Shown here: positions 2,335 to 58,400 of the stretch, one piece after another
How positions within the stretch are numbered: position 1 is the first letter of the stretch
How the letters are laid out: every line of letters begins with the position of its first letter
The notes under the pieces: generated by a model
What the model was told of the DNA's origin: nothing
What the model saw: the letters and a program-made list of their open reading frames with translations, nothing else
Database searches by the model: none
IMG/VR virus record: IMGVR_UViG_3300043024_000042
Length of the DNA: 64,000 nucleotides
Direction: 5' to 3' (one strand)
DNA from: a virus
Lineage: Duplodnaviria > Heunggongvirae > Uroviricota > Caudoviricetes
Made by a program: the position numbers and the translations under genes

Positions 2335-2637
2335 ATGACAGAGGATGAATATAATAAGGGGTTGTGCGCGATAAAAGACGAATACCAGCAGAAGAGAGAG
2401 GATTTGTCTAACAGATTTATCCAGCAAAACCATCGTTTTGAAATAGAAGATATTATCGAAGATAAATTTTCTCATCTGCGTATAAAAATCGAAAGTATAT
2501 ACGTAGAGCACCACCCTTTCAGTGGCTGGGTAGATATTAAATACTACGGATATGCGGTATCCAATGATAACGAGGTTGATGTAGGTAAGTGGGGCAATAT
2601 TTTTCAGAAAGATGCAGAACTTATAAAAAGAGGATGA
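2335..2637 (+). CDS. hypothetical protein, 100 aa
   Basis: ORF ending 21 nt before CRISPR leader copy 1. Confidence 0.4.
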   Translation: MTEDEYNKGLCAIKDEYQQKREDLSNRFIQQNHRFEIEDIIEDKFSHLRIKIESIYVEHHPFSGWVDIKYYGYAVSNDNEVDVGKWGNIFQKDAELIKRG

Positions 2638-2658
2638 TTATTAGGTGAAGAACAAAAT

Positions 2659-2762
2659 TGATAAAACGATATTCGGGCTGGCTGTACAGCCTTAGCGAGA
2701 GGGATTTTTCCACTCTTGAAATCATCTTTATATATTGATACATAACATATAACGTAAGACGT
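2659..2762 (+). promoter_or_regulatory. CRISPR leader, copy 1 (104 nt, 100% identical to 5599..5702)
   Basis: TGATAAAACGATATTCGGGCTGGCTGTACAGCC...TATATATTGATACATAACATATAACGTAAGACGT lies immediately upstream of the first repeat. It has an AT-rich 3' half and is exactly duplicated at array 2. Confidence 0.6.
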
Positions 2763-3123
2763 GTTGTATGTTATCTGATTTTTCAGACGATATACAGCTA
2801 AAGATAGCTGCGAGAAATACCCATGTAGTTGTATGTTATCTGACTTTTCAGACGATATACAGCCATTTAGATGTTTGGCAAAGATTTATTTGGTTGTATG
2901 TTATCTGACTTTTCAGACGATATACAGCGTGTGGTACACAGAAATCCTCTTTTTTGGTTGTATGTTATCTGATTTTTCAGACGATATACAGCATGAATAA
3001 GATTATGGTTGAATTAGATAAGGTTGTATGTTATCTGATTTCTCGGATGATATACAGCGTCGCCCATTCGCTATCTTTAATCTGAAAGTTGTATGTTATT
3101 TGATTTCTTGGATGATATGCAGC
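2763..3123 (+). CRISPR. CRISPR array 1: 6 repeats of 36 bp (GTTGTATGTTATCTGATTTTTCAGACGATATACAGC), 5 unique spacers of 28-30 bp, repeats degenerate toward the 3' end
   Basis: Repeats at 2763, 2828, 2893, 2957, 3023 (2 mismatches) and 3088 (4 mismatches). Spacers at 2799-2827, 2864-2892, 2929-2956, 2993-3022 and 3059-3087. A further decayed unit ends near 3170. The repeat is an almost full-length hairpin with a TTTT loop. Confidence 0.85.
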
Positions 3124-3247
3124 GAATACTGCATCATAATGATACTATTCATTTTTAGATGATATACATCCGAAGTATCTCTACATAAATGTTAATAATT
3201 TAGTTACAAGATTTAGAATATGTGGAATATTAAAAGGAATTGGTTAG

Positions 3248-3616
3248 ATGATCGTTATACAGAAACAACCTTGGCATGATTTCACCCGTGTAATCATCAT
3301 GCAGGTTCACGAGAGCAAACCCGTAGCCGTTGCATCCGTTCAGATTGACCTTTACGAGAAAGAGCAGTGCTGGGGCGGTACGGCTTACATCTATGGCTTG
3401 TGGGTGGACAAGGATATTCGCAGAAGGGGCATCGCAAAAACGCTGCTTATGCTTGTCGAGAAATACGCAAAGCAAAACGGACACAAGTCAGTGATATTGG
3501 AATGGAACTTGAACGATACCCCGGTTGAAGTCCTGCATTGGTATATAAGGTGCGGATATGAGGGTATCGAGTTTAAGGATAATAGCAAACGGATTAAATT
3601 GGAAAAGAAATTTTAG
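3248..3616 (+). CDS. GNAT-family N-acetyltransferase
   Basis: Acetyl-CoA motif A, GLWVDKDIRRRGIAKTLL (R-x-x-G-x-A). About 120 aa, typical of minimal GNATs. Confidence 0.6.
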   Translation: MIVIQKQPWHDFTRVIIMQVHESKPVAVASVQIDLYEKEQCWGGTAYIYGLWVDKDIRRRGIAKTLLMLVEKYAKQNGHKSVILEWNLNDTPVEVLHWYIRCGYEGIEFKDNSKRIKLEKKF

Positions 3617-3619
3617 CCT

Positions 3620-3811
3620 ATGAAGATTAAAGCGTTTATATACACACTCGGTTTCTGCTCCATCCTGCTTGTTGCTGTATTGACACTCTATAATTTCATT
3701 CAGTTATGCGGAGCGGTGGACGGAATCATCTTGTTTGCGCTTATACTGCTGTTCATTTACAGCACTTACAGACTGATACTATATTATATAAGCCATGAAC
3801 AAGGAAAATAA
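3620..3811 (+). CDS. small membrane protein, two predicted TM helices
   Basis: Hydrophobic translation FCSILLVAVLTLYNF...IILFALILLFIYSTY. Confidence 0.4.
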   Translation: MKIKAFIYTLGFCSILLVAVLTLYNFIQLCGAVDGIILFALILLFIYSTYRLILYYISHEQGK

Positions 3812-3942
3812 AATGGGGCACATCCAATTTGGCATACTCCAAGAGTTTGACGGTATGGATATTGGTACCGTAATAAAGGTGCTTGCCAGCGTGTATGCGG
3901 AGATAGAGATATGCAGCGCGGAACACGGAGGGATAGAGGAAT

Positions 3943-4485
3943 ATGACCTATTCTCTTACTTCGTGGATTGCGTGGAGGATTACAAACAAATTAAAAAACA
4001 GTGCGAAAATGGTGATTAAGAGTGACAAAAGTCCTGGAGACAGATATTATCAATTTAGAGGATGGGAACAGTGCTGGGGCATGAGAGAAAGCCGCGGATG
4101 GGTATATGGGAGCCTTATCAATTATGATGGAGGAATTGCCATACGCGAATGTGCCGAAATTAACTACGACACTTCCATCGTTGAGGGTACAGCCTGCCAA
4201 TGGGTCAATGATTTTGACAGTAATAACCGATGGCTTTACGAGGGTGATTACGTGAAGTTCAGTTATCATTACCAAACCTACATAGGCATGGTGATGTTTG
4301 ACGACAAGACCAAGAGTTACGCTATCCAGTTTGATGATGGCTATCCCAAGAAGAGGCACATCAAATCCCTGCTTCCCCTGCATATTTTCAGCAGGGAGGA
4401 ATTGACGGTGGTGGGCGACTTTAAGACCACACCTAACCTGTTGCTTTGTGATGATGAACTTGACGGACGGGAGAGAGAATTATGA
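3943..4485 (+). CDS. hypothetical protein, 180 aa, Trp/Tyr-rich
   Basis: ORF overlaps the shorter 3795..4019 ORF, which is in another frame. No recognisable motif. Confidence 0.4.
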   Translation: MTYSLTSWIAWRITNKLKNSAKMVIKSDKSPGDRYYQFRGWEQCWGMRESRGWVYGSLINYDGGIAIRECAEINYDTSIVEGTACQWVNDFDSNNRWLYEGDYVKFSYHYQTYIGMVMFDDKTKSYAIQFDDGYPKKRHIKSLLPLHIFSREELTVVGDFKTTPNLLLCDDELDGREREL

Positions 4486-4751
4486 ACGGGGAATTACATC
4501 TGACGGTACAGAACAAAACATGGAATGAAGTTGTTAATGGTAGACAGAAATTCATCTATCGGGACACAACGAAGTATTTCCGTGACCGAATACAGAAACA
4601 GATACCCTACAAGGTGACGTTTCGCAAGGAGTACACCAACATTAGAATAAGTTACGAGGTGTTGGGTGTCACTGTCGGATATGGAGACCCGAAATACGGA
4701 AGTGACGAAAAGAAGAAGTATTATATTATTCAAATAGGTAAAAGAGTATAA
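4482..4751 (+). CDS. hypothetical protein, 89 aa
   Basis: ATGA overlap with the previous gene. Confidence 0.4.
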   Translation: MNGELHLTVQNKTWNEVVNGRQKFIYRDTTKYFRDRIQKQIPYKVTFRKEYTNIRISYEVLGVTVGYGDPKYGSDEKKKYYIIQIGKRV

Positions 4752-4752
4752 A

Positions 4753-5031
4753 ATGAAAACTATATATAAGTATTTGATTGGGAAACCCGGTGTACCGGTT
4801 GTGCTGCCGATGCCCAAGGGTGCGCAGTTCTGCGATGTGCAGATGCAGGGCGATAGCTTTGCGATGTGGTTCCTCGTTGATCCCGATATGGAGAAAGAGG
4901 ATAGAGTGTTTGAGTTGGTGGGTACCGGCTATAAAGTATACCCCAACATGGAATACAGAGGCACCGTTCAGATAATGGATGGTCGTGTTGTACTTCATTT
5001 GTTTGAACGTCTTAGACAGATTCCGGTATGA
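4753..5031 (+). CDS. hypothetical protein, 92 aa
   Basis: Tightly packed ORF. Confidence 0.4.
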   Translation: MKTIYKYLIGKPGVPVVLPMPKGAQFCDVQMQGDSFAMWFLVDPDMEKEDRVFELVGTGYKVYPNMEYRGTVQIMDGRVVLHLFERLRQIPV

Positions 5032-5291
5032 CAGAAAAGAGCATTAAGGTAATTGTGCTAATACTCTTTTCGGTCTTTTTCTGCCATACCTTATACGTCA
5101 AACACCTTCTGTATGAGGGTTATGAACGGCAGATGAGATTGATAGATAAGTATGAGCAGGCATTGTTTGAGTGTGACAGCCTTTTAAGGGATAAAATGAT
5201 GGAGACAATTTACCGTCAACAAAACATAAGTTATGAAGAGCAAGAAGATACGGAAAATATACCACAGACTGATAGCGGCGGTGCCTTATAA
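5028..5291 (+). CDS. hypothetical protein with an N-terminal TM helix
   Basis: ATGA overlap. Translation VIVLILFSVFFCHTLY. Confidence 0.35.
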   Translation: MTEKSIKVIVLILFSVFFCHTLYVKHLLYEGYERQMRLIDKYEQALFECDSLLRDKMMETIYRQQNISYEEQEDTENIPQTDSGGAL

Positions 5292-5601
5292 TATATACAC
5301 TGCCTTTCAGGAACAATATCCCGAACTGTTGGGCGAGCTAAAAAGTGAGAAAGACCTTTATATGGTTTGGTGTATCGAGACCCGGCAAATCGGTGTATCT
5401 TATCGGATACGTGAGGATTTCCCATCCAAAATAATGCACGAGGCTTCTTGCGATCGTCTTGACGATGGTCGTTGGTTCAGAAGCGAGTATCTGATAGACG
5501 AGCATACCAACACTTATAATGTATATGTCTATTTCCCTGAAAACATTTGGACCATTATGAACATTGTAAAAATGTGGAATAAGAAAAGAATTTATGACTG
5601 A
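5233..5601 (+). CDS. hypothetical protein; stop codon abuts leader copy 2
   Basis: ORF runs to a TGA at 5599-5601. The 5' end overlaps the previous gene, so the true start is probably internal. Confidence 0.35.
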   Translation: MKSKKIRKIYHRLIAAVPYNIYTAFQEQYPELLGELKSEKDLYMVWCIETRQIGVSYRIREDFPSKIMHEASCDRLDDGRWFRSEYLIDEHTNTYNVYVYFPENIWTIMNIVKMWNKKRIYD

Positions 5602-5702
5602 TAAAACGATATTCGGGCTGGCTGTACAGCCTTAGCGAGAGGGATTTTTCCACTCTTGAAATCATCTTTATATATTGATACATAACATATAACGTAAGAC
5701 GT
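5599..5702 (+). promoter_or_regulatory. CRISPR leader, copy 2 (identical to 2659..2762)
   Basis: Exact 104-nt duplicate of the array-1 leader, starting at the stop codon of the upstream gene. Confidence 0.6.
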
Positions 5703-6181
5703 GTTGTATGTTATCTGATTTTTCAGACGATATACAGCTCTAAGTCATAGTGATAGTTTATAGTAATGTTGTATGTTATCTGATTTTTCAGACGATATAC
5801 AGCCAGAAATTAGTAAGTATTCAAATTGGCTTGTTGTATGTTATCTGATTTTTCAGACGATATACAGCGAGGTACTCTTTTTATGGATTCCTTTCCTGTT
5901 GTATGTTATCTGATTTTTCAGACGATATACAGCAAGAGGAAAATCAGTGCATCACTGGTGCCTGTTGTATGGTATCTGATTTTTCAGATGATATACAGCG
6001 AAATAGATAAGAGTTCGCATAGGTTGTATGTTATCTGATTTTTAGATGATATACAGCCAAAGATAATAAAATCTATGACAGAGCGAGTTGTATGTTATTT
6101 GATTTCTCGGATGATATACAGCGCCAACGACGTTGGACTTTTAGAGTTGTATGCAGTTTGTAAAGCCGAATGATATACAGC
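5703..6181 (+). CRISPR. CRISPR array 2: 8 repeats with the same 36-bp consensus, 7 unique spacers of 23-30 bp, 3' repeats progressively degenerate
   Basis: Repeats at 5703, 5768, 5833, 5898, 5964 (2 mismatches), 6023 (35 bp), 6087 and 6146 (heavily decayed). Spacers at 5739-5767, 5804-5832, 5869-5897, 5934-5963, 6000-6022, 6058-6086 and 6123-6145. Confidence 0.85.
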
Positions 6182-6218
6182 GAACTGCCATTAGCATTAT
6201 TAACCAAAGCGATAATTT

Positions 6219-7319
6219 ATGATAATAACAAGAAAGATTCAGGTCTATGTCTCGGACGAGGATAAAGACCAAAGAAAGGAAATGGTTCACACCGTTTACA
6301 CATGGCGAGACCTTGTTAGGCGCACGGCAAACATGATTGTGGCGCACAAGTTCGTTCAGCAACAAGTCCGTGATTTCGTCTACTTGAAGGACGAGATTCA
6401 GGAGAAGTTCTACGTCAAGGATATCTTGAAGGAGGGCAAGGGTATGAGCGAGCAGAACACCACCTACCGCATCGCAGCGGATATGTTGAAGGGCAAAGTT
6501 CCTGCCGACATCTATTCCTGCCTTAATCAGGCGGTGGCGAACACCTTCAAAGAGACCATCAAGGATGTGAACACGGGTAAGGCGAGCGTGAGAAGTTACA
6601 AGAACAACATTCCCATGCCGTTCAGTGCGAAAGCCCTTTCCAATATCCATTGGTCGGAAGAGGATAACCGTTTCTACTTCACTCTGTTCGGTATTCCCTT
6701 TGCAACATCCCTCGGTCGTGACAGAAGTAACAACAAGGTGATCATCGAAAGAACCATCAGCAAGGAGTACAAACTTTGCTCGAGTTCCTTGCAGATTGAT
6801 GATAAGAAAAAGAAGATGTTTCTCTTGCTCTGCGTGGATATACCCAAGAAGGAGGTCGAGTTGGAGAAAGGCAAGCAACTGCTCGCCACCCTCGATGTAA
6901 TGGCACCCATTGTCGCTGTTATCGGCAGCAAGCGGTATGAGATAGGAACCAAGGAAGAGTTTACCTACCGCAGGGTGCAACTGCAAGAGGCGGTAAGACG
7001 CTGCCAGATTGAGAATAGATACAATAATGGCGGGAAGGGTCGCAAGCGCAAGACGCAGGCGATAGAGCGGTTTCATGAGAAGGAGAATAACTACGTAGAT
7101 ACGAAACTGCACACCTACTCCCGTATGCTGGTCGATTTGGCGGTCAAGAACAAATGCTCCGAGATTGTCCTGCTTGACCAAAAGCGCAGGGAGGACGAGG
7201 CGAAGGAGGATAATCAGAACGGAGAGCCTTTCGTTTTGCGTAACTGGTCTTACTTCGGGTTGGAGAGTAAGATTGATTACAAGGCCAAGACGGTTGGGAT
7301 TGCGTTAATTAAAAAATAA
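6219..7319 (+). CDS. Cas12f/TnpB-like RuvC-fold protein, C-terminally truncated (no Zn finger or RuvC-III), RuvC-II Glu replaced; TldR-like dead mini-Cas12 architecture
   Basis: Recalled from memory, not by search: similarity to Un1Cas12f1/TnpB. TnpB-type N-terminus RKIQVYVSDEDKDQRKEMVHTVYTWRDLVRRTANMIV. WED/RuvC-I block MFLLLCVDIPKKE..LLATLDVMAPIVAVIG, cf LNLSIDVPKID..IIGGIDVGVKSPLVCAI. Block GGKGRKRKTQAIERFHEKENNYVDTKLHTYSRMLVDLAVKNKCSEIVLLDQKRRED, cf HGAKNKLKPITILTEKSERFRKKLIERWACEIADFFIKNKVGTVQMENLESMKRKED. C-terminus NWSYFGLESKIDYKAKTVGIALIKK, cf FWPYAEMQNKIEFKLKQYGIEIRKV. The ORF stops where the Cas12f Zn finger would begin. The start is preceded by the variant element GCATTATTAACCAAAGCGATAATTTATG. 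Confidence 0.6.
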   Translation: MIITRKIQVYVSDEDKDQRKEMVHTVYTWRDLVRRTANMIVAHKFVQQQVRDFVYLKDEIQEKFYVKDILKEGKGMSEQNTTYRIAADMLKGKVPADIYSCLNQAVANTFKETIKDVNTGKASVRSYKNNIPMPFSAKALSNIHWSEEDNRFYFTLFGIPFATSLGRDRSNNKVIIERTISKEYKLCSSSLQIDDKKKKMFLLLCVDIPKKEVELEKGKQLLATLDVMAPIVAVIGSKRYEIGTKEEFTYRRVQLQEAVRRCQIENRYNNGGKGRKRKTQAIERFHEKENNYVDTKLHTYSRMLVDLAVKNKCSEIVLLDQKRREDEAKEDNQNGEPFVLRNWSYFGLESKIDYKAKTVGIALIKK

Positions 7320-7330
7320 TTCAGATAAAG

Positions 7331-7909
7331 ATGGGAGAAGAAGAGAAGATACTGGATGTGGACGGGAAGCCCGTAGGATTTGGTAAATGCAACCTTGAAG
7401 GAATACAAGGTTTGGGAGAGGATTTTAATGCGTTGGCCGACGATATGGCCAATGATGTTAAGCAAATATTAGGTCACTACCTTGTGCAGAAATGTATAGA
7501 TGAATTTGTCAATATCGAAGAGAAGGAGCCTGATCATACCGAACCCGAAAAAGAATCCCTTACTTATGGTAAAGCGCAGATTAATTATGAAACTGGCGAA
7601 CTTGTAAAGACGAGTATAGGCTCGTATATTTGTTCCAGTGCAACGCTCCCCGTGTCCGCCCCATTTTATAGCCGCTCTATATGGGAATATTGGGTGTATT
7701 TCTGTTTGAGAGGCCAAGTCCCAGCTGATCCTGACTTTAAGGACTACGCTTACTCCAATTTCTGGCGCATCGTCAAAGAGATGATATACCACAAGAAGAG
7801 AATGGGGCTTGCAAAGTCGGAAGGATTCAGGAGACACCACGAGAAACGATTGAAGAGTTTGGAAAATACTTATAAATTTAGTTTGACTTGGAATGGAAAC
7901 GGAAATTAA
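7331..7909 (+). CDS. hypothetical protein; N-terminus (GKCNLEGIQGLGEDFNALADD) may be a decayed RuvC-III remnant in a different frame from 6219..7319
   Basis: KCN...EDFNALADD loosely resembles Cas12f KCNFKENADYNAALNI. Only one Cys, so no Zn finger. About 150 further residues are unlike Cas12f. Confidence 0.3.
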   Translation: MGEEEKILDVDGKPVGFGKCNLEGIQGLGEDFNALADDMANDVKQILGHYLVQKCIDEFVNIEEKEPDHTEPEKESLTYGKAQINYETGELVKTSIGSYICSSATLPVSAPFYSRSIWEYWVYFCLRGQVPADPDFKDYAYSNFWRIVKEMIYHKKRMGLAKSEGFRRHHEKRLKSLENTYKFSLTWNGNGN

Positions 7910-10312: not shown

Positions 10313-10622
10313 TACATCCGTCAATGGAGAGGTGCTACCCGAGCAGAAGCGGGAGCAGCGTTATCCTCTCCGTCTCAATTCCAACACCGTCATTATGGTC
10401 AGGAAGGAGAATCTGAATGAGGAATATGCCGAGAAGAAGCGTATCCAGTTAGGACTTATAGCCGTTGAGAAGCCCAAGATGAAGGGCAACCAACGTGTTA
10501 CCATTACGGAGAATGAGTTGCGCAGACTGCGTGAAGAGGGTGTGACCGTCAAGGATATCGCCCACGAGTACAACTGCGGACCGAGAACGATAGCAAGACG
10601 AATTAAAGAGTTTGGATTATGA
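10296..10622 (+). CDS. small HTH DNA-binding protein
   Basis: C-terminal helix-turn-helix TVKDIAHEYNCGPRTIARRIKEFG. ATG at 10296 overlaps the dut 3' end. The ORF-track start at 10158 is an over-extension. Confidence 0.45.
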   Translation: MRKKVDTSVNGEVLPEQKREQRYPLRLNSNTVIMVRKENLNEEYAEKKRIQLGLIAVEKPKMKGNQRVTITENELRRLREEGVTVKDIAHEYNCGPRTIARRIKEFGL

Positions 10623-11590
10623 CATTAAGAGTATTCGAGGCTTTTGCAGGATATGGCTCGCAAGCCATTGCATTAAAGCGACTTGCAAGATTTTACCCCC
10701 CCCTAAAATTGGAATTTGTAGGGATTTCGGAAATTGATAAAAACGCTATCATTGCTTATAAAGCCATACATGGAGACATCCGTAACTATGGCGATATATC
10801 GGCTATTGATTGGAGTGAAGTTCCTGATTTCGACCTGTTTACTTACTCTTTTCCCTGCCAGGATATTTCCAACGCTGGCTTGCAGAAAGGCTTTACAGAG
10901 GGCAGCGGGACGCGCAGCTCGTTGCTTTGGGAGTGTAAGAAAGCGATAGAGGTCAAACATCCAAAATACCTGCTGATGGAGAATGTGAAGGCACTTACCC
11001 AAAAGAAGTTCATGCCATATTTCAAGATGTGGGTGGATTGTTTGGAGGGTTATGGATACAAGAACTTTTGGAAAGTGCTTAACAGCAAGCACTACGGGGC
11101 TCCGCAAAACAGAGAGCGGGTGTTCATGGTATCCATCCGTGATGATGGCGACAATCCATCATACACTTTTCCCGAACCGTTCCCCTTGCAGAAACGTCTC
11201 AAAGACATTCTCGAGAAGGAAGTGGATGAGAGTTTCTATCTGCGCCAGGAGCAAGTGCAGCGCATCGTGGCACATTGCGAGAGAAAGGTTGCGGAGGGCT
11301 GCGGGTTCAAGACGAACTTCACTGATGGCAGCAGCGTGAGCGGAGCTATCAAGACCAAGGAGGGTAATCGCGAGTACGATACCTACGTGAAGGAACCTGC
11401 GCCAAAATACGGGAATAGCAGATTGAACAAGATGATCAAGGATGGGAAGATTGATCCGGACAAAACAGAGTGGGTGGATGCTTACAACCAACCCACCAAC
11501 GATGAGATATCCGGCACCATCCTTACCCGAGTGGATGCGAGCAATCATTACTTAATCAACGAGGGGGGTAAAATGCGTGAACCAATATGA
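10619..11590 (+). CDS. C5-cytosine DNA methyltransferase, N-terminal catalytic part (motifs I-VIII)
   Basis: FAGYGSQ (motif I), ISEIDKNAIIAY (motif II), FPCQDIS (motif IV PCQ), LMENV (motif VI), QNRERVF (motif VIII). Contains a C8 tract at 10696-10703. Ends just after a G6 tract at 11563-11568. Confidence 0.85.
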   Translation: MTLRVFEAFAGYGSQAIALKRLARFYPPLKLEFVGISEIDKNAIIAYKAIHGDIRNYGDISAIDWSEVPDFDLFTYSFPCQDISNAGLQKGFTEGSGTRSSLLWECKKAIEVKHPKYLLMENVKALTQKKFMPYFKMWVDCLEGYGYKNFWKVLNSKHYGAPQNRERVFMVSIRDDGDNPSYTFPEPFPLQKRLKDILEKEVDESFYLRQEQVQRIVAHCERKVAEGCGFKTNFTDGSSVSGAIKTKEGNREYDTYVKEPAPKYGNSRLNKMIKDGKIDPDKTEWVDAYNQPTNDEISGTILTRVDASNHYLINEGGKMREPI

Positions 11591-12431
11591 TGAGAATGGT
11601 GTGCAGCGGCATTTGCAGGATAGAATCTTTGATTCAGAAGGCGTGAGTACCGCTGTGACTGTATCCTTCCATCCAAACATAATTGATTATGGAGACAGAA
11701 CAGATGATTCTAAAACCAGTCAGGACGGAGATAGCAAAACAACTCCGCAAGATGGGAATTGAAAAGTTCGGCAATCGGCAACTGATACCTTCCAAAGATG
11801 GAGTGAGTAACACGATTACCACCGTCCTTAAAGACAATCTTTTGCTGGAGCCAATCACTTGCGCATCCCGTAAGCGTGGTAGTGTTCACAAGATTGAATT
11901 GGGGGGGTAATTGCGAACGCTATTACCACTATCAATACAGACAGCATGATTGCAGAACCTATAAAGCAAGTTGAGAGTGAAATTAAAGATTAAGCAGGCA
12001 ACGAAGCAGGGATGGATAGAGGTTCCAGAGGGGGGTATTTGACATTGCCTACCCCAACAGCAAGAACCGAAGGGGTCGCGTTCAGGATGGCGGCATGGTC
12101 TGCCCTGCATTAACCTGCGAGCCGATAATCTGCGTGTATGAAGGATGTGATAATCAAGGCGAGCGTTCACCCGCTCAGCCACAAACTTGAATTTAAGGGA
12201 TGGGGAAGTTTTGGTGACGTTTGTCCTGCTTTAAGGGCGACTGACTATAAAGCCCCCGTTGTGATGATTATGGAACAAGAACCTATTAATACGGATAGCG
12301 AGGGTAACGCTTACACCATTACAGCAAGGTACCCTATACTCAACGCTGCGAATGTCATGGGAGGTAATCACTTCCCTAAGACGGTGGTTAGCGAGCATGA
12401 CGAGAATTACCCCCCCTACCCGATAATTTAG
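11553..12431 (+). other. fragmented target-recognition-domain (TRD) region of a multispecific C5-methyltransferase: at least 4 TRD-like cores spread over three frames, separated by G/C homopolymer tracts
   Basis: TL-type TRD cores appear in different frames: EGVSTAVTVS (frame 0, ~11640), DGVSNTITTV (frame 1, ~11800), NAITTINTDS (frame 0, ~11920) and EGNAYTITARY (frame 0, ~12310). Tracts: G6 at 11563-11568, G7 at 11901-11907, G6 at 12030-12035, C7 at 12410-12416. Confidence 0.5.
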
Positions 12432-12442
12432 ATTTAAGAAAG

Positions 12443-12895
12443 ATGGCGAAGAAAGAAGTTAAGCGTGCCGCGGACGAACTGAAAAAGATTGCCCAAGCGT
12501 CACGGAGTTGTGATGTCGGTGTGACTATCAATCCCGACAATTCGCTCAGACCCTTCAATAAGGGCAGTAAGGCGAAGGATGGAATTAGTGAGTATTGTAC
12601 CGACTACGAGTGCGGTATCGGTTCCACGACCATCGCCGCACGGCCCAACAAGGTCTACGGTGATTCAACCCGTTATCGAATCCGCAAGCTGACCCCGGTT
12701 GAGACGGGTCGCTTGATGGGTATGGATGATGAGGATATACAGAAGATGAAGGATGCGGGATTGAGCAAGTCCGCCATGTACAAGCTGCATGGTAACTCCA
12801 TCGTGGTGGATGTGCTGTTCTATATCTTCCGCAATCTCTTCATTGATGAGTTCAAGAACCCGCAACCGAAAGGGCAGTTGACATTGGATTTTTAA
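12443..12895 (+). CDS. C5-cytosine methyltransferase, C-terminal part (a fifth TRD core plus motifs IX-X)
   Basis: GSTTIAARPNK (TRD core), RKLTPVETGRLMGMDD (motif IX) and KLHGNSIVVDVLFYIF (motif X). One extra C in the 12410-12416 tract would fuse it to the upstream frame-0 TRD. Confidence 0.75.
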   Translation: MAKKEVKRAADELKKIAQASRSCDVGVTINPDNSLRPFNKGSKAKDGISEYCTDYECGIGSTTIAARPNKVYGDSTRYRIRKLTPVETGRLMGMDDEDIQKMKDAGLSKSAMYKLHGNSIVVDVLFYIFRNLFIDEFKNPQPKGQLTLDF

Positions 12896-18033: not shown

Positions 18034-18405
18034 ATGGAAAGAAAGTCAAAAGAAATGAGCTTCACGCGCTCTGAAAACGTGCAGCAGCCGTTGTTTGACA
18101 ATGGCATCACTCTCGCTGGAACAGACGAGAAAGACCCCATGAAAGCCCAACTGGTTGCGGAAGGGTACAAAATTGTATCGGAAAACAGCTTTGGAGTAAC
18201 GGCCACAAGGATGGGAACAAAGCCCATGTTCCTTGCCAAGACCAAGGATGGCTATATGCCCAGCGACACGAAGGTATCCCTTATGATTCCCGAATCCCTT
18301 TATTCACAGATGCGCATTGTTTGCGTCAAGGAGAAGGCAAGCCTTACGCAGGGCCTTGTGCAGGCAATAATGGAGTATTTGACCAAAAGAGGAATTGAGT
18401 ATTAA
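18034..18405 (+). CDS. small protein upstream of parA, possible partition or DNA-binding partner
   Basis: ATG at 18034. C-terminus VSLMIPESLYSQMRIVCVKEKASLTQGLVQAIMEYL is ribbon-helix-helix-like. Its position next to parA suggests a partner role, but function is not established. Confidence 0.3.
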   Translation: MERKSKEMSFTRSENVQQPLFDNGITLAGTDEKDPMKAQLVAEGYKIVSENSFGVTATRMGTKPMFLAKTKDGYMPSDTKVSLMIPESLYSQMRIVCVKEKASLTQGLVQAIMEYLTKRGIEY

Positions 18406-19204
18406 AAGAGTTATGCTTATGGTTATTTCCATTATTAACAACAAGGGAGGTGTAGGCAAGACTATGACTGCCCAAAACCTCGGTGCTGCGCTTGCCCTTT
18501 GTGGCAAGCAGGTTTGTCTTATCGACCTCGACAGCCAGCACAATCTGACCACTCGATACGAAAACACGGGAAGGGAAGAGGTTAAAGACGGTGAACTGTA
18601 TTCCAATCAGACCATTGAGGATTACATTGACAATCCACGGCTACCCATTCGCCCGTTGAAGGTGAAGGACAATCTCTATATCATCCCATCGACCACAAGG
18701 CTCGCAAGGGTGAGCGCTGCCATGTACAATCTTAGCAAGGGACAGCAACCAAGCTACAAACTTTCCAATATATGCAATGCTATGCGCCAGGGCTTCGACT
18801 ATATTATAGTGGACTGCGCACCGAGCATGAGCGCTTTGATGGTGAACGCTGCGGTAGCCGCAGACATGATCATCATCCCCGTGAGTTGTCAGGATGCCCT
18901 GATGGGAGCAGGTGAGGGTGTATTTGAGTTGATGGACAACAACAAACTCGACACTCCTTATTACTTCCTCCAGACTATCTATGAGGACCGTTTGAAGTCC
19001 AACCGCGACCGCAAGCGTCAGTTACTATCCAAGGCTTTTGACCATACTTTGCACACGGAGATAAAGAGGAATGAGTATCTGAACCTCTCTGCGGAGTGCG
19101 GTCAGGATGTGTACGAGTATGCTCCCAAAAGCAGGGGAGCGGAGGATTACATGACTTTGGCATTAGAAGTAATCGGTATTACCAGCAAAAGAAGAAAGGA
19201 GTAA
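18395..19204 (+). CDS. parA: ParA/Soj-family partition ATPase
   Basis: Deviant Walker A ISIINNKGGVGKTMTAQNLG and Walker B IIVDCAPS. 269 aa. Confidence 0.85.
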   Translation: MSIKRVMLMVISIINNKGGVGKTMTAQNLGAALALCGKQVCLIDLDSQHNLTTRYENTGREEVKDGELYSNQTIEDYIDNPRLPIRPLKVKDNLYIIPSTTRLARVSAAMYNLSKGQQPSYKLSNICNAMRQGFDYIIVDCAPSMSALMVNAAVAADMIIIPVSCQDALMGAGEGVFELMDNNKLDTPYYFLQTIYEDRLKSNRDRKRQLLSKAFDHTLHTEIKRNEYLNLSAECGQDVYEYAPKSRGAEDYMTLALEVIGITSKRRKE

Positions 19205-21882: not shown

Positions 21883-22860
21883 TCAATAGAAATAATTAAG
21901 GGTTAATGAATTGAATTTCTCTTTCTCTGTGACGAGATACGTCTGCGTGATGGATGTGGACGAGTGACCCATAAACTTGCTTATGGTCAGGATATCCACA
22001 CCGTGCAGATAGAGGTTGCAAGCAAATGAACGTCTTGCAGTGTGCGAACCAATGTATTTGTATTTCTCCCCGATCATGCGTTTCCCGGCGAGGAATACAG
22101 ATACCTTTTGTGTGATGCCAGCCTTCTTGCAAATCTCCCGAACGTAATGGATGAAGGTTGCGAGGGAAACTTCGCGCTCTTTCGCCTGGTTGAAGTAAGT
22201 CAGGAAGTTGCGGTGCAGCGGCACTGCAATGACCGACTTGGACTTCTGCGATACGTAACGGATAATCCTGCTGTCTTCGTCAATCATCTCCTTCTCGATA
22301 AGCATAAGGTCTGACCTTCGTCCGCCAAGATAGAACTCACAGAGCCATTGCGCCTTGCAGATTCTCTCCATTTTGTTCTCCGGCTCATACGCTTCGAGTA
22401 ATGCTATGTCCGCTTCCGAGAGATACACATTCTCTGATGGCTCATCCTTAACGGATAGCACTTCCTTGTAGGATGTGGTCGGAAGTTCAACGTCGTCTCT
22501 CCATAAGTTAAGCACGGCTTTGAGGATCTTCGTGTACGTCCTTACGGTTTTCGCGCAATTCTTATCCTTCATCAGTCGGACGGTTTTAGCCAGATTCTGC
22601 TTTGTGAGGTCCTTCCATTGCGGAAACTTCTTTCCGGTACCTTCTATTACATAAGGGACGATGTTCGTACCATTATTGGGATGCTTTAATAGCAATGCAC
22701 CAACGAATGACTGCGACCACTTCTCAATGTCCTGACCTTTCTTGTAGTAACCAAGGTAGGCAATCCTTCGAGGAATTTTCGGGTCTCCAACACCGTGAAA
22801 AGCGTGTTCGTAGAGATATTTGCCAGCCTCGATTACTGGCACTGAATAACGTACTCCCAT
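21883..22860 (-). CDS. int: tyrosine site-specific recombinase/integrase
   Basis: C-terminal catalytic region HTARRSFACNLYLHGVDILTISKFMGHSSTSITQTYL (R..H..R..Y). The early-gene element and a GC hairpin (GAGCCGC...GCGGCTC) lie upstream at 22861-22920. Confidence 0.85.
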   Translation of the reverse strand: MGVRYSVPVIEAGKYLYEHAFHGVGDPKIPRRIAYLGYYKKGQDIEKWSQSFVGALLLKHPNNGTNIVPYVIEGTGKKFPQWKDLTKQNLAKTVRLMKDKNCAKTVRTYTKILKAVLNLWRDDVELPTTSYKEVLSVKDEPSENVYLSEADIALLEAYEPENKMERICKAQWLCEFYLGGRRSDLMLIEKEMIDEDSRIIRYVSQKSKSVIAVPLHRNFLTYFNQAKEREVSLATFIHYVREICKKAGITQKVSVFLAGKRMIGEKYKYIGSHTARRSFACNLYLHGVDILTISKFMGHSSTSITQTYLVTEKEKFNSLTLNYFY

Positions 22861-46011: not shown

Positions 46012-46209
46012 AACAAACAGAGGCCCGCCTGCAAGCCATATACGACCTGCACGCGAGCCTCTTGGACTTCTTGATGATTAATGTACCCTGCAAATATAGC
46101 AATGTCTTAGTATTTAGCGAATAAAAATCAAATTATATCGAAATTTTTTCCGAAAATATTTGCCAATGTGCCATGACATTTATATGTTTGCCCTCGTAAT
46201 AATAACCTT

Positions 46210-52493: not shown

Positions 52494-55400
52494 ATGGAAG
52501 GAACAAGTTTGGGTAATCTTTATTTCGAGCTGGGGATAAAGGATACCGCCACGCAGAACATTGACGGGGTTATCAAATCCCTGCAAGAGAAGCTGAAAGT
52601 CCTGGAGGTAGGAGGCTTGAAGTTCAAGGAAGGCTCTGTGAATGGACTAAAGAAGATGATTGAAGGAGGTCTGTACGGCCTCGAAGTTGCCGTTTCGCAG
52701 GACAGCATCGTATCAAGCATCAATAAGGCCATCAAGACAGGAGCGTTTTCATCCATCAACCTTAGAGCGTTCATCGCCGAGGATGAGTTCAATAAAATCA
52801 GCTCGCAAATCGAGGCTTTGAAAACAAAGGCTCAGGGTGTCGTTATCTCCGTCAAGAATGTGGGTGGTGGTGACGTAAACCTCAATCCTATCATCAACAG
52901 CGGAAAGCCGATAGAGTTGAAGGGTACGGCAAGTATTGTCGCTAACCTTGACGTAGAGGCCACCCGCGCGTCTCTGCAAGCGCAGCTCGCTAAAATAACC
53001 GGGTTGAAGGTTGATGTACAAGTCAATCCTATCACCCCTGCTGGTACTACTCCTTCCGCACCGGCTCGTCAGCGCACGCGCACCGCCGACAGTAATCAAC
53101 TCAATTTAAACTTCTCGGAGAAGGTAGTCACTTCATCTAAGAAGGCCGAACAAGCTTTCAGGCAGGAAGGTTCTGCCATAGAAATGCTTATCAGTGAGTA
53201 CGAACGATTGGAGGCGAGAAGAAAAGACCTCGACTCCTTATCGGAGGGGACCATCGAACCAAAGATGGATGAGACGGCTGCGAGGATTGAAGCCATCCGC
53301 AAGAAGATAAACGAGAATGTCAACGCTATCGGTCATGCGAACCAGCAAACCAAGAAGAGTCTCAAACCAAGCGTAAATATATCCGACCTAAAGAAGCAAA
53401 TTGAGCTTGACCGGGTTGAACTTGGAAAGGCTGAAATGGAGGCTGGCAAACTTGATAGACAGAATACTGACATCGAGCGGCAATTTAAGGTGATTGGGGA
53501 TCGAATAGCACAAATCCGCAAGATACTATATCCCGATGAAACGCTAAATTGGAACGCTAAATCAGCTGGCAATAGAGTTGCAAGTCTTGAAAAGAGTATA
53601 ATAACAGAAACTACGCTTTTGGATAAGGTGACAAAGGATATAGCCGAGTCACAGTCCAAACTTGACGCTCTGAAACAGAAAGGCTCGGGTAGCCGGGCAG
53701 AAGAAGCCAAACTCGAAGCTCTAATCAAGAAATCAGAGCGATACAAACAACAGCTCGAAAGGTACAAACTGTCGCTCGAAGAAGCGAAGCGCAAGAAAGC
53801 GGAAGCAGACAGCGCACTCGCGGACTTCGAGTACACCCGTTATGCTCCTACATCAGCAACCCCCTCTACTCCTACGCAAACCGCTCAGGTCTCCACCACC
53901 GTAGCGCAAAAGGAGAAGGAGGCAGCGAATGTTCAGAAAGAGGCTGCTCAGGCGAAAAAGGAAGCCGCGCAAAAGGAGAAGGAGGCGACATCTGAAAGCA
54001 CGAAGTCCGCTAAGGCAAAGTCTGATGCAGAGAAGGCGAACGAAGCAGCCATTAAATCCCGCATTGCCACCATCAAGAAGTATGATTCCACAATGGATAC
54101 CATGCGTCTGTCTATCGCACGCAAGGGTAAGAAACTCAATGACGAGTTGCGAGACTTTGCACGCGAGCGCTCGCGTATCTATCAGGAAACACTCAAACTC
54201 AATGGCGGGCGCGAGGCGATCAACGATTACTTGGTCGGCAGAAAGGAATCCATCGGGCTTGTTACATTGAAATCAAAATACGCTTACGATGCGAAAACCG
54301 CGGATGTGAGCGAGAAGTCCGCTGCAAAGGAGGAAGCGGCAGCAAGCAGACTTTCCGCCAAACTTATCGAGATAAAGGGCCGGATGTATGACCGTATGGC
54401 CAAGCTGGACGAAGCGGCAGCGGCAAAGACAGTAGCCATTCAGACCAGCCTTTTCATGCGTGCCGAGCGTATGCAGTGGCAGCAGTCAAACAAGTCGAGC
54501 GATATATCCGCTCGTGGCGGAAAGGTGTCTGTCTACGAGAGGAATGTGGCCCTGCTGGAAGAATTTCAAAAGAAATTGCTTGCCATCGAGTCTCTTGAAG
54601 ATGCGATGGCCGCAAAGAACACGTTTGCGCAGCTCTCGTCCAACATCCAGTCTACCACGAGCAATGCGGATAAGTTGAATCAGTCGTATATCCGCAACAA
54701 GGAGGCCATCGAAAAACTCGCTGTTGCTGCCCAATCCAGTTATGCGATAGCCGATGCAAGTGGCAAAACCGGTCTGAGCGCAGGCATAACGGCGGCATAC
54801 GAAGAGTTGAAGAAATTCAATGACAAGCTTGCAGACCCCTCCAAGTGGACCTCGATAGATACTCTCGGAAAGGAGTTTAACGATATTAAGCTGAAGATTG
54901 TCGCTGCGGAAGCCGAGTACGCCAAATTCAACAAGGGATTTATCTCCACCGACAAGGCTGTCGAGAAGGTGGATTCCGCACTTGTCAAACTTGCTAACAA
55001 GAAACGCGAGCTGGATAATTATAAAGGTACTCGTGGCGCGGAGTGGCAGAACGCGCTCAATGCCCTTAATGCTTATATCGCCAAACTTCAATCGTTGAGA
55101 TCGAGCGGAGATATTAACAGCAAGAGTATTGTCGGAAAAGCTACCGGTGTAGAATTACAGCAGGCCATCCTGAGAGTTAACCAATATCTTGATGCTCAGA
55201 AGCGCGCGGATACTGCCACGAGAGCATCTGCAAGTTCTCACGGAGTAGCGGAGAAGGCCATTAGAAAACATGCGGATGCAAATGCGAAGCTTAGCGCGAG
55301 CCTTAGCAAATCAGGTGGATTGTTACACCTTAACATCAATCTCATGCAGCAACTCGGCTCTATGATTGGTATGTACTTCTCTATATACACCTTGCAGCGT

Positions 55401-58400
55401 TTTGTTTCCGGCATCGCCCAAATCTATGGTGAGTTTGAGAAAACGAAGATTGCGTTAGGCTCCATCCTCAATGATACGGCAAGAGCAAATGAACTTTTCA
55501 ACGAACTAAAATCACTGGCGGTCCAGTCTCCCTATCAGTTTAAGGATTTGACCGGATTCGTTAAGCAGTTGTCGGCTTTCTCGTTCCCCGTGGATGAACT
55601 TTACGACACCACAAAGCGCCTCGCAGATATTTCTGCGGGTCTCGGTGTGGATATGGGCCGAGTCATTTTGGCCGTAGGCCAGGTCCGCAGCGCCGCGTAC
55701 CTCAGGGGTCAGGAATTGAGGCAATTTACAGAAGCTGGCATCCCAATGTTGGACGAACTTGCCAAAAAACTGACCGAGGTTAAAGGCCGTGTAGTAGAGA
55801 CCGGAGAAGTGTTTGATATGATTTCCAAGCGTCAGGTTCCCTACGAAATGGTGAAGGAAGTTGTTGACGACCTTACCAACGAGGGCGGTAAGTTCTACAA
55901 GATGCAGGAAGTATTGGCTGATTCTCTTGCCGGTAAAATCTCGAACCTTACCGATGCCTATAATATCATGCAGAATGAGATTGGCGAGATGGGCGCAGGC
56001 GGTTTCATGGGCAAGGGAGTGGATGCGTTGAAGCAAGTCATGCAGAATTGGAAAATGCTTGGCAATATCCTCTCGTCCGTCCTTGTCGGATATACTGCGA
56101 TTAAGATTGCTCAAATGTCCTACCACAAGAGTGCTGCCAGCGGTCTTGCCGAAGAGATAACCGCGAGAAATAAGATAATCCGTCTTGGAAATCTCGAGAA
56201 ACTTAATGTTTTAGGCCTTAAAGGAATTCATGGTGAGCGAGTTGTATTGCAACGCCAGGCTGTCAATGAAAAACTGAAAGAACTGATAAGTCAGGATAAG
56301 CTAACGGTCGGGGACCTTACGAGACTGCGCATCCAAAAGTTAATTACCAAAGAGCAGTACGAGCAAAACTTAGTTCTTCTTGGAGTGGGCAAGAGTTTAG
56401 CCAATCAAACCGCTGCTCTTTCCACAATGAAGTTGCGGTGGAGATTGATTGGCGCAAGCGTTGTGAATGGGTTTAAGAGCATGGTTAGCGGATTCGTGTC
56501 TTTATTCTCGTCTCCTGCGTTGTGGATTGGCGCAGGAATAACGCTTATTACCTCGTTATTGGAAAAATATGAGGCAATACAGCAAAAGAAAGAGCAACTT
56601 GTCAGTGACGCACGCGACATGGGTTCCGAAGCCATCAAGGATACTCGCAATGTGTTGGCGAGATCATTGACCGAAAAGGGCGGTGGAATTGAGTATGATG
56701 ATATTGTGAAGATTGACGAGAAGCAACTTAGCACCGAGATGAAAGGCAAAATCCTCAAAGCAGTTCAAGACCTCGAGGAAACCATCAAGAAACACTCCCC
56801 GATTGCAGCACAGCAGATATTCGATATCGAATCCATCGACAATGTAATCGAGCGTCTTGAAAAGGCGAAGGGTGTTGTAGAGGAAATCCAAAACCAAGCA
56901 AGATACTCGGAATATTATGGTGCAATCATAGCCGACCATTATAAGTTGGATGATAAGTTTAAGTCTGCTGCCGACTCGCGTACGGCCTTCCAAAAGGCCG
57001 CATTGAGTGTATCCGAGCAGGAAGTTGACAGATTCGTTAAGGCACTGAATGAGAAATTTGGCTCCTACGACAAGCGTGCGAAAGACGTCAGCGAAATTTG
57101 GAGTAATGGCGGCTCCATCCAGGACATCATTAAATATATCGCGGAAAACAGACAGCGTATCCCAAGCAGCCTGATGAGCGGTAATATGTTTTATGCAAGC
57201 AACATCTATGCGAGCATGGAGGCTATGCAGAAAGCGGCTCAAAAAGAATGGGGAAAGCTTTCTGACACCGCAATCCTGGCTGCGAACCGCGAGGGTCTTA
57301 CTGACGATGAGCGCAGGATGTGGCTGGAGAATTTCAAGAAGGCAGCGTTCACTGCGTTCCCGAATGTCGCACGTGACCCCGAGTTCGAGCGGCAACTTAC
57401 TTCTGTGTTCCAACAGAAGGCATTTGGTGTGTCCGATTCTTACATCAGCGATATTGCGACCGAGTATCTTAGTACTCTCACAACCACCGAGCAGCAAGTT
57501 CTTGATGTTCATAGCGAGCAGTTCAAGAAGCAATTCGCGTCATGGCTGGCAAAGACCAAGGGTATTGTTGTAACATCTGACGGGAAGGCTGTATCCGCCC
57601 CGTATAACTACGGAGAGCAGGCTGCATCCATTCAGTCCTTCTTTGATGGTAATATCCAAGCGATGTTTGACGCTCAGGAAGAAAAGGTTAAAGAGGTGCA
57701 GGATGAGATAAAGCAGGATTCCGCTCAATCACAGCCCGATTCAATCTGGGGGAAGAGCGGTTCTTTCAAGTCGAGCGTTGATGCCATCCTCGATAAAATC
57801 AACGATGGTACGACCGCTGCCGTTGAGGGTAAGACGGAGACAAACGCGCAGGCTGTTGCTGATGAAGTCAAGCGAGAATCTGAAAGTGCCGGTAGGAAGA
57901 ACCCGGATGAGATGCGCAAGGCTATTGCGAAGAGGATTGTAAGCCTTATCAACTCAGGTGATGAATCACTCCGCGTCATGCTTCGCAAATCCGGTATGTA
58001 TGATGATATTATGAGCCTTGGCAAGTCTGATATCGAGAAATTTATGGAAAACCAATGGAGGGAATATGCCGATAACGAGGATTTCTTCTCTTGGATACCT
58101 TTCTCGCAGCGCACCAACAAGCAGGTTGGTAGTGATGCAAAGGAGAAGATTCACACGGAGATAGGTGACTTCATCGAGAATATGTGGAATGATTATGCCG
58201 ATTGGGAGGAATTTTCCGCTTGGATACCTTTTGAGCAGCGTATTGATCCTGACAAGAGACAACCTAAGACCGCTAAAGAGCATATCCAAACTGAAATCGA
58301 GAATTATCTCGACAGCTCTTGGAAGTCCTATGCCAATAATATGGCTATCGGCGCTTGGCTGAAACCGTCTGATAGCGATGCGGCAAATAAGACATCTAAG

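Follow-up and report, generated by a model that had tools for sequence, protein, structure and literature searches.

The 64,000-nucleotide (nt) stretch of DNA analysed here, referred to as the window, comes from a virus of the Caudoviricetes (IMG/VR record IMGVR_UViG_3300043024_000042). It carries two CRISPR arrays, each preceded by the same structured leader RNA, and a gene for a nuclease-dead Cas12f (dCas12f) beside the second array. On balance, and with modest confidence, these elements are best explained as a phage-borne, binding-only module for RNA-guided silencing, made up of the dead Cas12f and two guide-RNA genes that each join a scaffold to an array. All positions follow the numbering of the 64-kb stretch, and both arrays lie on the + strand. 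A first-pass annotation, made from the sequence alone, had recognised the arrays and offered three options for them: that they are static, that they depend on host Cas proteins, or that they serve the adjacent Cas12f-like protein. The last of these is the option favoured here.

The dCas12f of Flagellimonas taeanensis (structures 9n9c and 9n9m) provides the reference for the comparisons below. According to Hoffmann et al. (Nature 2026, PMC13472631), it binds DNA by means of a 14-16-nt 3' guide and starts transcription jointly with an adjacent extracytoplasmic function (ECF) sigma factor, sigma-E. Family members whose loci lack this factor are called sigma-E-less.

The dCas12f effector

The dcas12f gene (6219-7319, + strand) encodes 366 amino acids (aa) and starts 38 bases past the end of array 2, on the same strand and across a 37-nt gap. 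The PADLOC models for Cas12f and Cas12u3 match the protein with an E value of 1e-55 over profile positions 1-341 of about 399. The best solved relative is PDB 9n9c, a “nuclease-deactivated Cas12f” of 365 aa, whose residues 9-363 align to residues 4-364 of the window protein (E 1.9e-80); the next-best structures are nuclease-active Cas12f proteins of 420-530 aa that reach 60-100 residues past its C-terminus. In an alignment to CnCas12f1 (8hr5) and AsCas12f (7wju), the RuvC-I aspartate falls on a threonine (LLA-T-LDV) and the RuvC-II glutamate on a leucine (IVL-L-DQ), and the window protein stops before the zinc finger and RuvC-III, both of which are absent. The top two Foldseek matches of an AlphaFold model (predicted local distance difference test score 79) are the dCas12f-guide RNA complexes 9n9c and 9n9m (template-modelling scores 0.68-0.71), ahead of active Cas12f. 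The NCBIfam TnpB model scores 56 bits, under its cutoff of 100, and Cas12f and dCas12f match better than TnpB. Judged by its sequence, the window effector is a member of the dCas12f family that lacks all three RuvC catalytic residues. The earlier label of Cas12f-like is right as to family and incomplete as to state, since the protein is catalytically dead and C-terminally truncated.

A protein search returns 1071 homologs, the best 120 of which are 338-429 aa long. The 28 homologs that were aligned (61-95% identity) all end just past the YKAK..GI strand; their catalytic positions are unconserved, and 79 positions are invariant. Two other identities for the gene were rejected: an active Cas12f nuclease, by the catalytic-site mapping together with the C-terminal truncation, and a pseudogene or truncation artefact, by the large homolog family in which all 28 aligned members have the same end point. 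Because its effector is catalytically dead and C-terminally truncated, the window locus is not a DNA-cutting immune system.

The open reading frame (ORF) that follows dcas12f (7331-7909) has no TnpB, zinc-finger or sigma signal. On the - strand, a 346-aa ORF (6141-7181) runs antisense through nearly the whole of dcas12f. Relatives with as little as about 60% sense identity also have about 280-320 codons of this antisense frame free of stops, and the ORF may be a by-product of codon usage.

The phage and its two CRISPR arrays

The window is DNA of a Bacteroidales phage and encodes a large terminase subunit, a portal protein, a major head protein, a primase and an integrase; a megablast search of INPHARED detects nothing closely related to this phage. 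In the window, the 36-nt repeat GTTGTATGTTATCTGATTTTTCAGACGATATACAGC is present in 10 copies with at most 3 mismatches, against 0 expected by chance, and further, more degenerate copies found by reading the sequence bring the total to 14 repeats. Array 1 (2763-3123) has 6 repeats (starting at 2763, 2828, 2893, 2957, 3023 and 3088) and 5 spacers. It is followed at 3124-3171 by a tail consisting of a sixth spacer-like stretch and a truncated, degenerate remnant of a seventh repeat (about 3152-3171). Array 2 (5703-6181) has 8 repeats (5703, 5768, 5833, 5898, 5964, 6023, 6087 and 6146), of which the last three are degenerate, and 7 spacers. The repeat length, given earlier as a constant 36 bp, is so for all copies except the 35-nt one at 6023.

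The 12 spacers are 23-30 nt long and each is different, as the first-pass annotation had stated. None has a second copy elsewhere in the window, even with up to 6 substitutions. In both arrays the repeats are perfect near the leader and degenerate at the distal end, which bears out the decay described earlier. With the repeat counts and the phage genes, the proposal of two CRISPR arrays inside a phage genome is upheld: both loci are genuine CRISPR arrays. Degenerate variants at the old ends are common to the two, in that repeats 5 and 6 of array 1 (A1R5 and A1R6) resemble repeat 7 of array 2 (A2R7; ...TTTCTCGGATGA...). Because these variants are shared, the two arrays are taken to derive from the duplication of a single ancestral array whose spacers have since diverged.

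As RNA of the + strand, the repeat folds into a near full-length hairpin with a UUUU loop (-16.2 kcal/mol). The almost full-length palindrome reported before is borne out, with a stem of 10+5 pairs around one mismatch.

No Pfam domain of Cas1, Cas2 or Cas4 is found among about 35 window ORFs (the small ORFs were scanned non-exhaustively), in agreement with the reported lack of adaptation genes, and none occurs in the annotated neighbourhoods of relatives.

About nine small + strand genes lie between array 1 and array 2 (3124-5598), among them a GNAT acetyltransferase gene (3248-3616), a weak YopX match (3943-4485) and a gene for a DUF7352 protein (4753-5031). Because the arrays of relatives directly flank dcas12f, these genes appear to be a cassette between one duplicated leader-array unit and the effector.

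The leader as a structured, tracrRNA-like RNA

Leader 1 (2659-2762) and leader 2 (5599-5702), both on the + strand, are identical at 104 of 104 positions, exactly as first claimed, and identity stops there, the sequences further out being unrelated. The same annotation had called the leader AT-rich and conserved. Conserved it is, and the AT-richness is confined to the 3' 40 nt (25% GC); the 5' 58 nt (47% GC) form a covarying structured RNA, and the leader holds two elements complementary to the repeat. In leader 1, hairpin 1 pairs 2675-2680 with 2687-2692 around the loop GCUGUA (2681-2686), hairpin 2 lies within 2695-2718, and a 12-nt anti-repeat, ATAACATATAAC, occupies 2742-2753. The corresponding elements of leader 2 are hairpin 1 at 5615-5632, hairpin 2 at 5635-5658 and the anti-repeat at 5682-5693.

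The structure is conserved across the family, in which the motif CGGG..G(C/U)UGUA...CC precedes every array. Related loci are labelled here with L-numbers (e.g., L002, L011, L029). RNAalifold, applied to 23 sequences of leader plus first repeat, gives two hairpins in which 12 of 15 pairs show compensatory changes. In this alignment 98.3% of cells are paired, a value that none of 500 shuffles and no slid register approaches. A covariance model of the 58-nt module (R1) finds exactly two strong copies in the window, at 2668-2725 and 5608-5665, with 72.8 bits (E 1e-20 for 2668-2725). Across 78 loci it finds 115 copies, all on the dCas12f strand wherever the gene orients the locus; the two minus-strand matches, in L077 and L078, are on contigs that were fetched by pattern and have no oriented gene. 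Among 81 distinct copies of the module, pairing holds in 96.5% of cells and compensatory changes occur in 14 of 15 pairs, in an alignment that is biased towards structure because it was fitted to the covariance model. The leader is a conserved two-hairpin RNA that stands beside almost every sigma-E-less family member, on the dCas12f strand.

Two parts of this RNA are complementary to the repeat. The repeat ends, next to the spacer, in the six bases UACAGC, to which the loop of hairpin 1, GCUGUA, is exactly complementary. Across the family the loop and the repeat end change together: with GCUGUA/UACAGC included there are seven hexamer pairs, the others being GUUGUA/UACAAC, GCUGCA/UGCAGC, GCUGUG/CACAGC, GCUGGG/CCCAGC, GUUGGG/CCCAAC and GCUACA/UGUAGC. 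Among 29 scaffolds with a variant loop, 21 are followed within 330 nt by an exact reverse complement of that loop, for the most part as periodic copies, against 5 that have the canonical hexamer. The second part, the anti-repeat, pairs with the 5' half of the repeat at a family mean of -9.8 kcal/mol for cognate and -7.2 kcal/mol for non-cognate combinations, in sequences that are phylogenetically non-independent. In the window, the anti-repeat matches the 5' end of the repeat perfectly over 12 nt (-13.2 kcal/mol, compared with -7.1 for non-cognate repeats). In these features the leader resembles a cis-encoded trans-activating CRISPR RNA (tracrRNA) or scaffold.

A viral contig, L029 (534-2700), encodes a full-size Cas12f of 431 aa with its zinc finger kept and has the same scaffold motif between the gene and an array of 11 repeats. 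Here hairpin 2 contains a large insertion and the repeats end in ...ATACAAC. The L029 system appears to be a phage-borne relative of the dead system that is still nuclease-active. From the presence of the same motif in L029, the leader is taken to be the counterpart of the type V-F tracrRNA, fused in the window to the array.

Rfam searches over 2500-7500 identify no known RNA family. A scan for sigma-70 promoters and terminators in the window gives no informative signal, Bacteroidetes promoters being outside the models of the scan. Upstream of the RNA module only about 10 nt are common to both leader copies. The promoter therefore seems to lie outside the duplicated unit, and transcription of the arrays may come by read-through from genes upstream.

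The number of scaffolds per locus varies. In L002, L045, L048 and L067, 4-7 scaffold modules surround one dcas12f gene (e.g., L002:5355-7209 and L045:3354-5885), which suggests tandem scaffold-guide units and a continuum from one tracrRNA plus array to the omega-RNA-like arrays of the literature. Strong scaffold modules also occur on short metagenome contigs (L076:202-259, L078:1139-1196 and L077:1217-1269) that have no recognisable 36-nt repeat array or dcas12f in about 1.3-1.6 kb of sequence; these may be single-guide units that stand alone. Scanning metagenomes with the core of the leader retrieves three short contigs only, all without arrays.

Distribution, sigma-E and a small partner protein

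An alignment-based scan locates the family at 33 loci of IMG/VR viral contigs and at 34 loci of GTDB genomes. The close homologs that were looked up (95-69% identity) are all on phage-like contigs with genes for portal, RecT, ERF, SSB, dUTPase, HNH or methylase proteins, and the closest genome matches are metagenome-assembled genomes (MAGs) of Paludibacter, Bacteroidales and Prevotellaceae. By tblastn and a profile hidden Markov model (HMM), all loci of Sphingobacterium, Pedobacter and Chitinophaga have a sigma-E gene upstream of dcas12f. At E<=1, the same methods find no sigma-E in the window, the viral loci or the Bacteroidales loci, and Pfam finds no sigma domain among the scanned window ORFs. 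A neighbour-joining tree places the window protein among sequences from phages and Bacteroidales, separate from the sigma-E clade to which the F. taeanensis dCas12f belongs.

Nearly all sigma-E-less loci have between one and three mini-arrays, each with 2-11 repeats, that share the strand of the gene and directly adjoin it on the upstream side, the downstream side or both; dCas12f co-occurs with such arrays in 33 viral loci. The family repeats are 36 nt long with the conserved ends ..TGTA....ATACAGC; some loci have 2-3 different types of repeat around a single gene.

Most viral and Bacteroidales sigma-E-less loci also encode, beside dCas12f and on the same strand, a conserved helical protein of about 73-85 aa (49 ORF hits, 23 distinct sequences) with the motif ...YMADLLE.N....IE.ERGKL.V..LKQ[LM]NNR....DA...ELK. 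Its genes lie, for example, at L011:11139-11378, L079:11433-11669, L038:7275-7496 and L083:4344-4592, near L023:9429 and L047:9509, and in about 40 more places. It belongs to no Pfam or PHROG family, and it is found neither in the 64-kb window, nor on the short contigs of the 95%-identical relatives, nor in any sigma-E locus. The protein may act as an accessory partner. Across loci, none of the other window ORFs is a conserved neighbour of dCas12f.

Spacer turnover and targets

The suggestion that the arrays are static is contradicted at the level of the family. One 377-aa dCas12f occurs unchanged on 15 contigs from different samples. In a comparison of contigs from 8 samples, the array upstream of its gene has 1, 1, 2 or 3 spacers, and the one downstream likewise 1, 1, 2 or 3. 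The differences are mostly at the leader end, where the extra spacers lie; the trailer spacer is common to most variants. In a clade of near-identical IMG/VR phages, leader and repeat are common and the spacers differ. The closest relatives of the window (L034-37; 95% protein identity) have unrelated spacers and a repeat stem changed by compensatory substitutions. Leader-end turnover was thus observed in family members rather than in the lineage of the window itself. As judged from these contigs, the arrays of the family are dynamic, without adaptation genes seen in the annotated neighbourhoods.

About 100 family spacers include two with informative matches, both to related phages. The leader-proximal spacer 1 of L011 matches 30 of 30 positions at L011:16874-16903, 5.4 kb away in the same phage, and also matches two sister phages (L010:9286-9315 and L008:17181-17210). 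The protospacer in L011 lies at the end of a small Xre/helix-turn-helix (HTH)-like ORF, seemingly split by a frameshift, just before the next start codon. A spacer of L014 matches 27 of 30 positions in an exonuclease-like gene of the sister phage L006. Since both spacers match the coding strand, their CRISPR RNA (crRNA) would pair with the template strand. The tolerated perfect self-match in L011 fits an effector that does not cut. The two protospacer 5' flanks, ...CCCTGC and ...GTTTTG, give no consensus for a target-adjacent motif (TAM). Two spacers of the IMG/VR clade matched only their own arrays.

Within the window, the first 16 nt of the second spacer of array 1 (A1-2) and of the first and second spacers of array 2 (A2-1 and A2-2) match positions 46177 (+), 37486 (-) and 31453 (-), each with 2 mismatches. 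These three matches, against 0.55 expected, are a weak signal. The site at 46177 is intergenic, between the terminase gene plus tRNA-Met and the structural genes. Self-targeting in the window was rejected: there is none at full length, and the 16-nt seed matches are not significant.

Comparison with known systems

The window protein aligns over its full length with the F. taeanensis dCas12f (366 versus 365 aa), with the same loss of the zinc finger and RuvC-III and with mutated RuvC-I and RuvC-II, and the two systems further share a guide 3' of a structured scaffold and an occurrence in Bacteroidota. The 5' module of the scaffold is homologous to the guide RNA (gRNA) region of dCas12f-sigma-E systems, as indicated by weak covariance-model matches downstream of the sigma-E-linked genes. 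In other respects the two differ. In dCas12f-sigma-E systems, dcas12f is followed by a fixed, chimeric single gRNA of 85-105 nt whose conserved 14-nt guide is directed to a host promoter region. The window, by contrast, has CRISPR arrays upstream of the gene, 36-nt repeats and variable spacers of 28-30 nt. It has no sigma-E or HTH partner beside the gene, is phage-borne rather than a chromosomal regulon, and has as its expected output repression or occlusion instead of activation. Because it has neither rpoE nor a fixed single gRNA, the window locus is not a member of the dCas12f-sigma-E systems.

Closer counterparts have been described in outline. Hoffmann et al. (PMC13472631; Extended Data Fig. 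1a,b) describe an rpoE-less, CRISPR-adjacent dCas12f cluster with a covarying putative gRNA upstream of the array, and suggest repression without experiments. The literature example of a sigma-E-less cluster is a Chitinophagaceae MAG that targets an efflux promoter, a bioinformatic mention only. Altae-Tran et al. (PNAS 2023, PMC10691335) predict an intermediate, an inactivated Cas12f with array and tracrRNA, on the way from Cas12f with its tracrRNA and array to the fused guide of the sigma-E-linked dCas12f. Like the cluster and the intermediate, the window locus has a dead Cas12f beside arrays, a covarying putative gRNA upstream and a proposed role as a repressor. It probably belongs to the same kind as the sigma-E-less cluster, to which it is likened by description, not by sequence. 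The sections of the literature that were consulted (PMC13472631 and PMC10691335 among it) do not describe phage carriage, leader-end turnover, self-targeting, covariation of loop and repeat end, or the small partner.

The type V-F1 systems (Un1Cas12f1/Cas14a, AsCas12f, CnCas12f1) resemble the window locus in fold, in belonging to a dimer-type family, in the 36-nt repeat, in the guide 3' of the repeat, and in the pairing of tracrRNA and repeat at two sites, one of them beside the guide. Unlike them, the window has no cleavage-competent effector and, among the ORFs scanned, no cas1, cas2 or cas4, and its tracr-like RNA is fused 5' to each array rather than being a separate gene. With no catalytic triad and no adaptation module, it is therefore not a functional type V-F locus. 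The repeat ends had been compared earlier with those of types V-F and VI-B; the likeness to V-F is retained, and that to VI-B is superficial. Type VI-B/Cas13b, or a hijack of host Cas proteins by the arrays, as the GTTG... ends might imply, was rejected because a Cas12f-family gene cognate to the arrays adjoins array 2 and accompanies such arrays throughout the family. The presence of this cognate effector gene also separates the locus from a solitary phage mini-array that uses host Cas proteins.

Other binding-only systems offer partial parallels. TldR proteins, said to have been described by Wiegand et al. in 2024, are reportedly TnpB-like nuclease-dead repressors, some of them prophage-encoded. 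The window module is like TldR in combining a miniature, RuvC-dead protein of the TnpB family, phage carriage and, by proposal in the window, a 3' guide for DNA binding and repression. TldR differs in its direct descent from TnpB and in its one fixed omega-RNA-like guide to a conserved host gene (fliC), with no array and no spacer turnover. The type V-M effector Cas12m and plasmid-borne type IV-A systems carry out CRISPR interference by binding only. They share with the window variable spacers and, as proposed for its module, conflict between mobile elements through DNA binding or silencing without target cleavage; they differ in belonging to other effector families and in being host- or plasmid-encoded, and Cas12m keeps its RuvC site for crRNA processing.

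Proposed mechanism and alternative explanations

If the elements act together as a binding-only silencing module, each guide-RNA gene would be transcribed as one piece that joins a tracrRNA-like scaffold (the 104-nt leader) to its array. The leader, the first repeat and spacer 1 would form a natural single guide, and later repeat-spacer units would rely on the scaffold in trans or once they have been processed. The spacer would serve as a 3' guide, as in Cas12f. A dCas12f dimer would make an R-loop, remain bound and block transcription or replication of the target, in the manner of CRISPR interference (CRISPRi). The module would serve to silence genes of phages that are relatives or competitors and sometimes genes of its own phage, and adaptation proteins of the host would supply new spacers in trans. 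A broader proposal is possible, and is put forward only tentatively: an adaptive, nuclease-free CRISPR of Bacteroidales phages whose tracrRNA-fused arrays gain spacers without a phage Cas1-Cas2, and in which the dead Cas12f, with the small partner in most relatives, would be a programmable transcription switch, silencing or even activating, for rival phages and for the genes of its own phage.

Several observations weigh against the silencing module. The minimum-energy fold in the window gives the hairpin of the repeat itself preference over pairing with the leader; for this reason, tracr-type pairing in the window rests on covariation and not on energy, and the palindromy of the repeat could itself partly explain the covariation of loop and repeat end. 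None of the 12 window spacers has a protospacer in the window, 93 related loci, INPHARED or PLSDB, so that the comparison with this genome and with related phages proposed in the first-pass annotation yields no match; nor do 20-mers of four window spacers find a target in IMG/VR. The biological role accordingly rests on two informative protospacers from other clades. The window also lacks the small partner of most relatives, and its module may therefore be incomplete or work differently.

Activation is an unlikely alternative in which the phage dCas12f would recruit the host sigma-E/RNA polymerase holoenzyme, or another phage factor, to spacer-matched sites. The closest characterised relative, the F. 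taeanensis dCas12f, drives promoter-independent transcription with sigma-E (PMC13472631), and the window protein shares the C-terminal truncation that is the docking place of the sigma-E C-terminal domain (PMC10691335). The leader covariance model, moreover, weakly matches just downstream of sigma-E-linked dcas12f genes (L071 and L066), the site of the published gRNAs. Set against this, no sigma-E-like ORF is found in the 64-kb window, the viral loci or the Bacteroidales loci, and the window protein belongs to a clade separate from the sigma-E-linked dCas12f. Fast-changing spacers also suit conflict better than fixed regulation, and the published sigma-E systems have conserved single guides. 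It is equally improbable that the module acts in counter-defence, whether as a decoy or heterodimer poison of a host type V-F system or by loading its arrays into an active host Cas12f against rivals. Such a role would have a precedent in the phage RuvC-dead Cas9 and tracrRNA mimic that are proposed to derail host CRISPR (PMC10910872). It would also agree with the dimeric action of Cas12f, with the adaptation genes not found in the window and with the active Cas12f that has the same scaffold motif on the viral contig L029. Every array, however, comes with a scaffold cognate to it, and the scaffold and repeat of a locus evolve together, also where there are 2-3 repeat types, which argues for a closed effector-guide system. 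As to hijacking, the perfect self-targeting spacer of L011 would be suicidal if an active host nuclease used it, and no host array with the window repeat was found in a non-exhaustive search.

A conserved protein of no known family adjoins dCas12f in most viral and Bacteroidales loci, and other dead Cas12 proteins have been exapted as targeting modules (Cas12k in CRISPR-associated transposons, CAST). These observations would suit a dCas12f that uses its guide to bring in a further activity (for instance recombination, replication control or the choice of an integration or packaging site) through a partner like the small helical protein. This proposal has a low probability: the window lacks the small protein, none of its other ORFs is a conserved neighbour of dCas12f, and there is no functional clue. 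Least probable is a decaying relic or a non-CRISPR minisatellite with no present function. The effector is truncated and dead, the repeats at the trailer end are degenerate and no targets were found for the window spacers. These points are opposed by the large, conserved family of truncated proteins (1071 hits, with 79 invariant positions among 28 diverse members), the compensatory evolution of the scaffold, the perfect leader-proximal repeats, the spacer turnover in relatives and the uniqueness of all spacers, and the relic or minisatellite reading is already largely refuted.

Significance

Nuclease-dead Cas12f was characterised only in 2025-2026, as chromosomal, sigma-E-dependent activators with fixed guides. 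Systems of the kind found in the window were first described in 2023-2026 and are not categorically new. The window and at least 33 viral relatives place the same protein family on phages, without sigma-E and fed by arrays that are still turning over, and the locus captures the intermediate predicted by Altae-Tran et al. (PMC10691335). If its arrays guide binding-only silencing, the module would be a compact phage CRISPRi with a 366-aa effector and an RNA scaffold of about 140 nt. Its covariation-supported RNA architecture could be used for the design of minimal guides. Tolerated self-targeting blurs the distinction between immunity and gene regulation. If the adaptive, nuclease-free proposal were true, it would amount to virus-owned RNA-guided gene regulation that is both heritable and updatable.

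Other genes of the window

A C5 cytosine DNA methylase is encoded at 10619-12895 (+) and is apparently fragmented, with short ORFs in other frames between the pieces. Its N-terminal motifs (FPCQD, ENV and QNRERVF), judged from the translation, are in the ORF at 10619-11590. The C-terminal motif, in the ORF at 12443-12895, corresponds to positions 258-322 of the Pfam DNA_methylase model. Relatives (L027) likewise have the methylase match in separate pieces. A ParA/MinD-type ATPase (AAA_31, E 1e-35) is encoded at 18395-19204 (+) and a tyrosine integrase at 21883-22860 (-), which together suggest that the phage is temperate and is possibly maintained in the manner of a plasmid. Downstream of the head genes, a single ORF of 3268 aa (52494-62300, +), in which a periodicity scan detects short internal repeats near 53900-53990 and 60160-60256, presumably encodes a giant tail, tape-measure or fibre-like protein.

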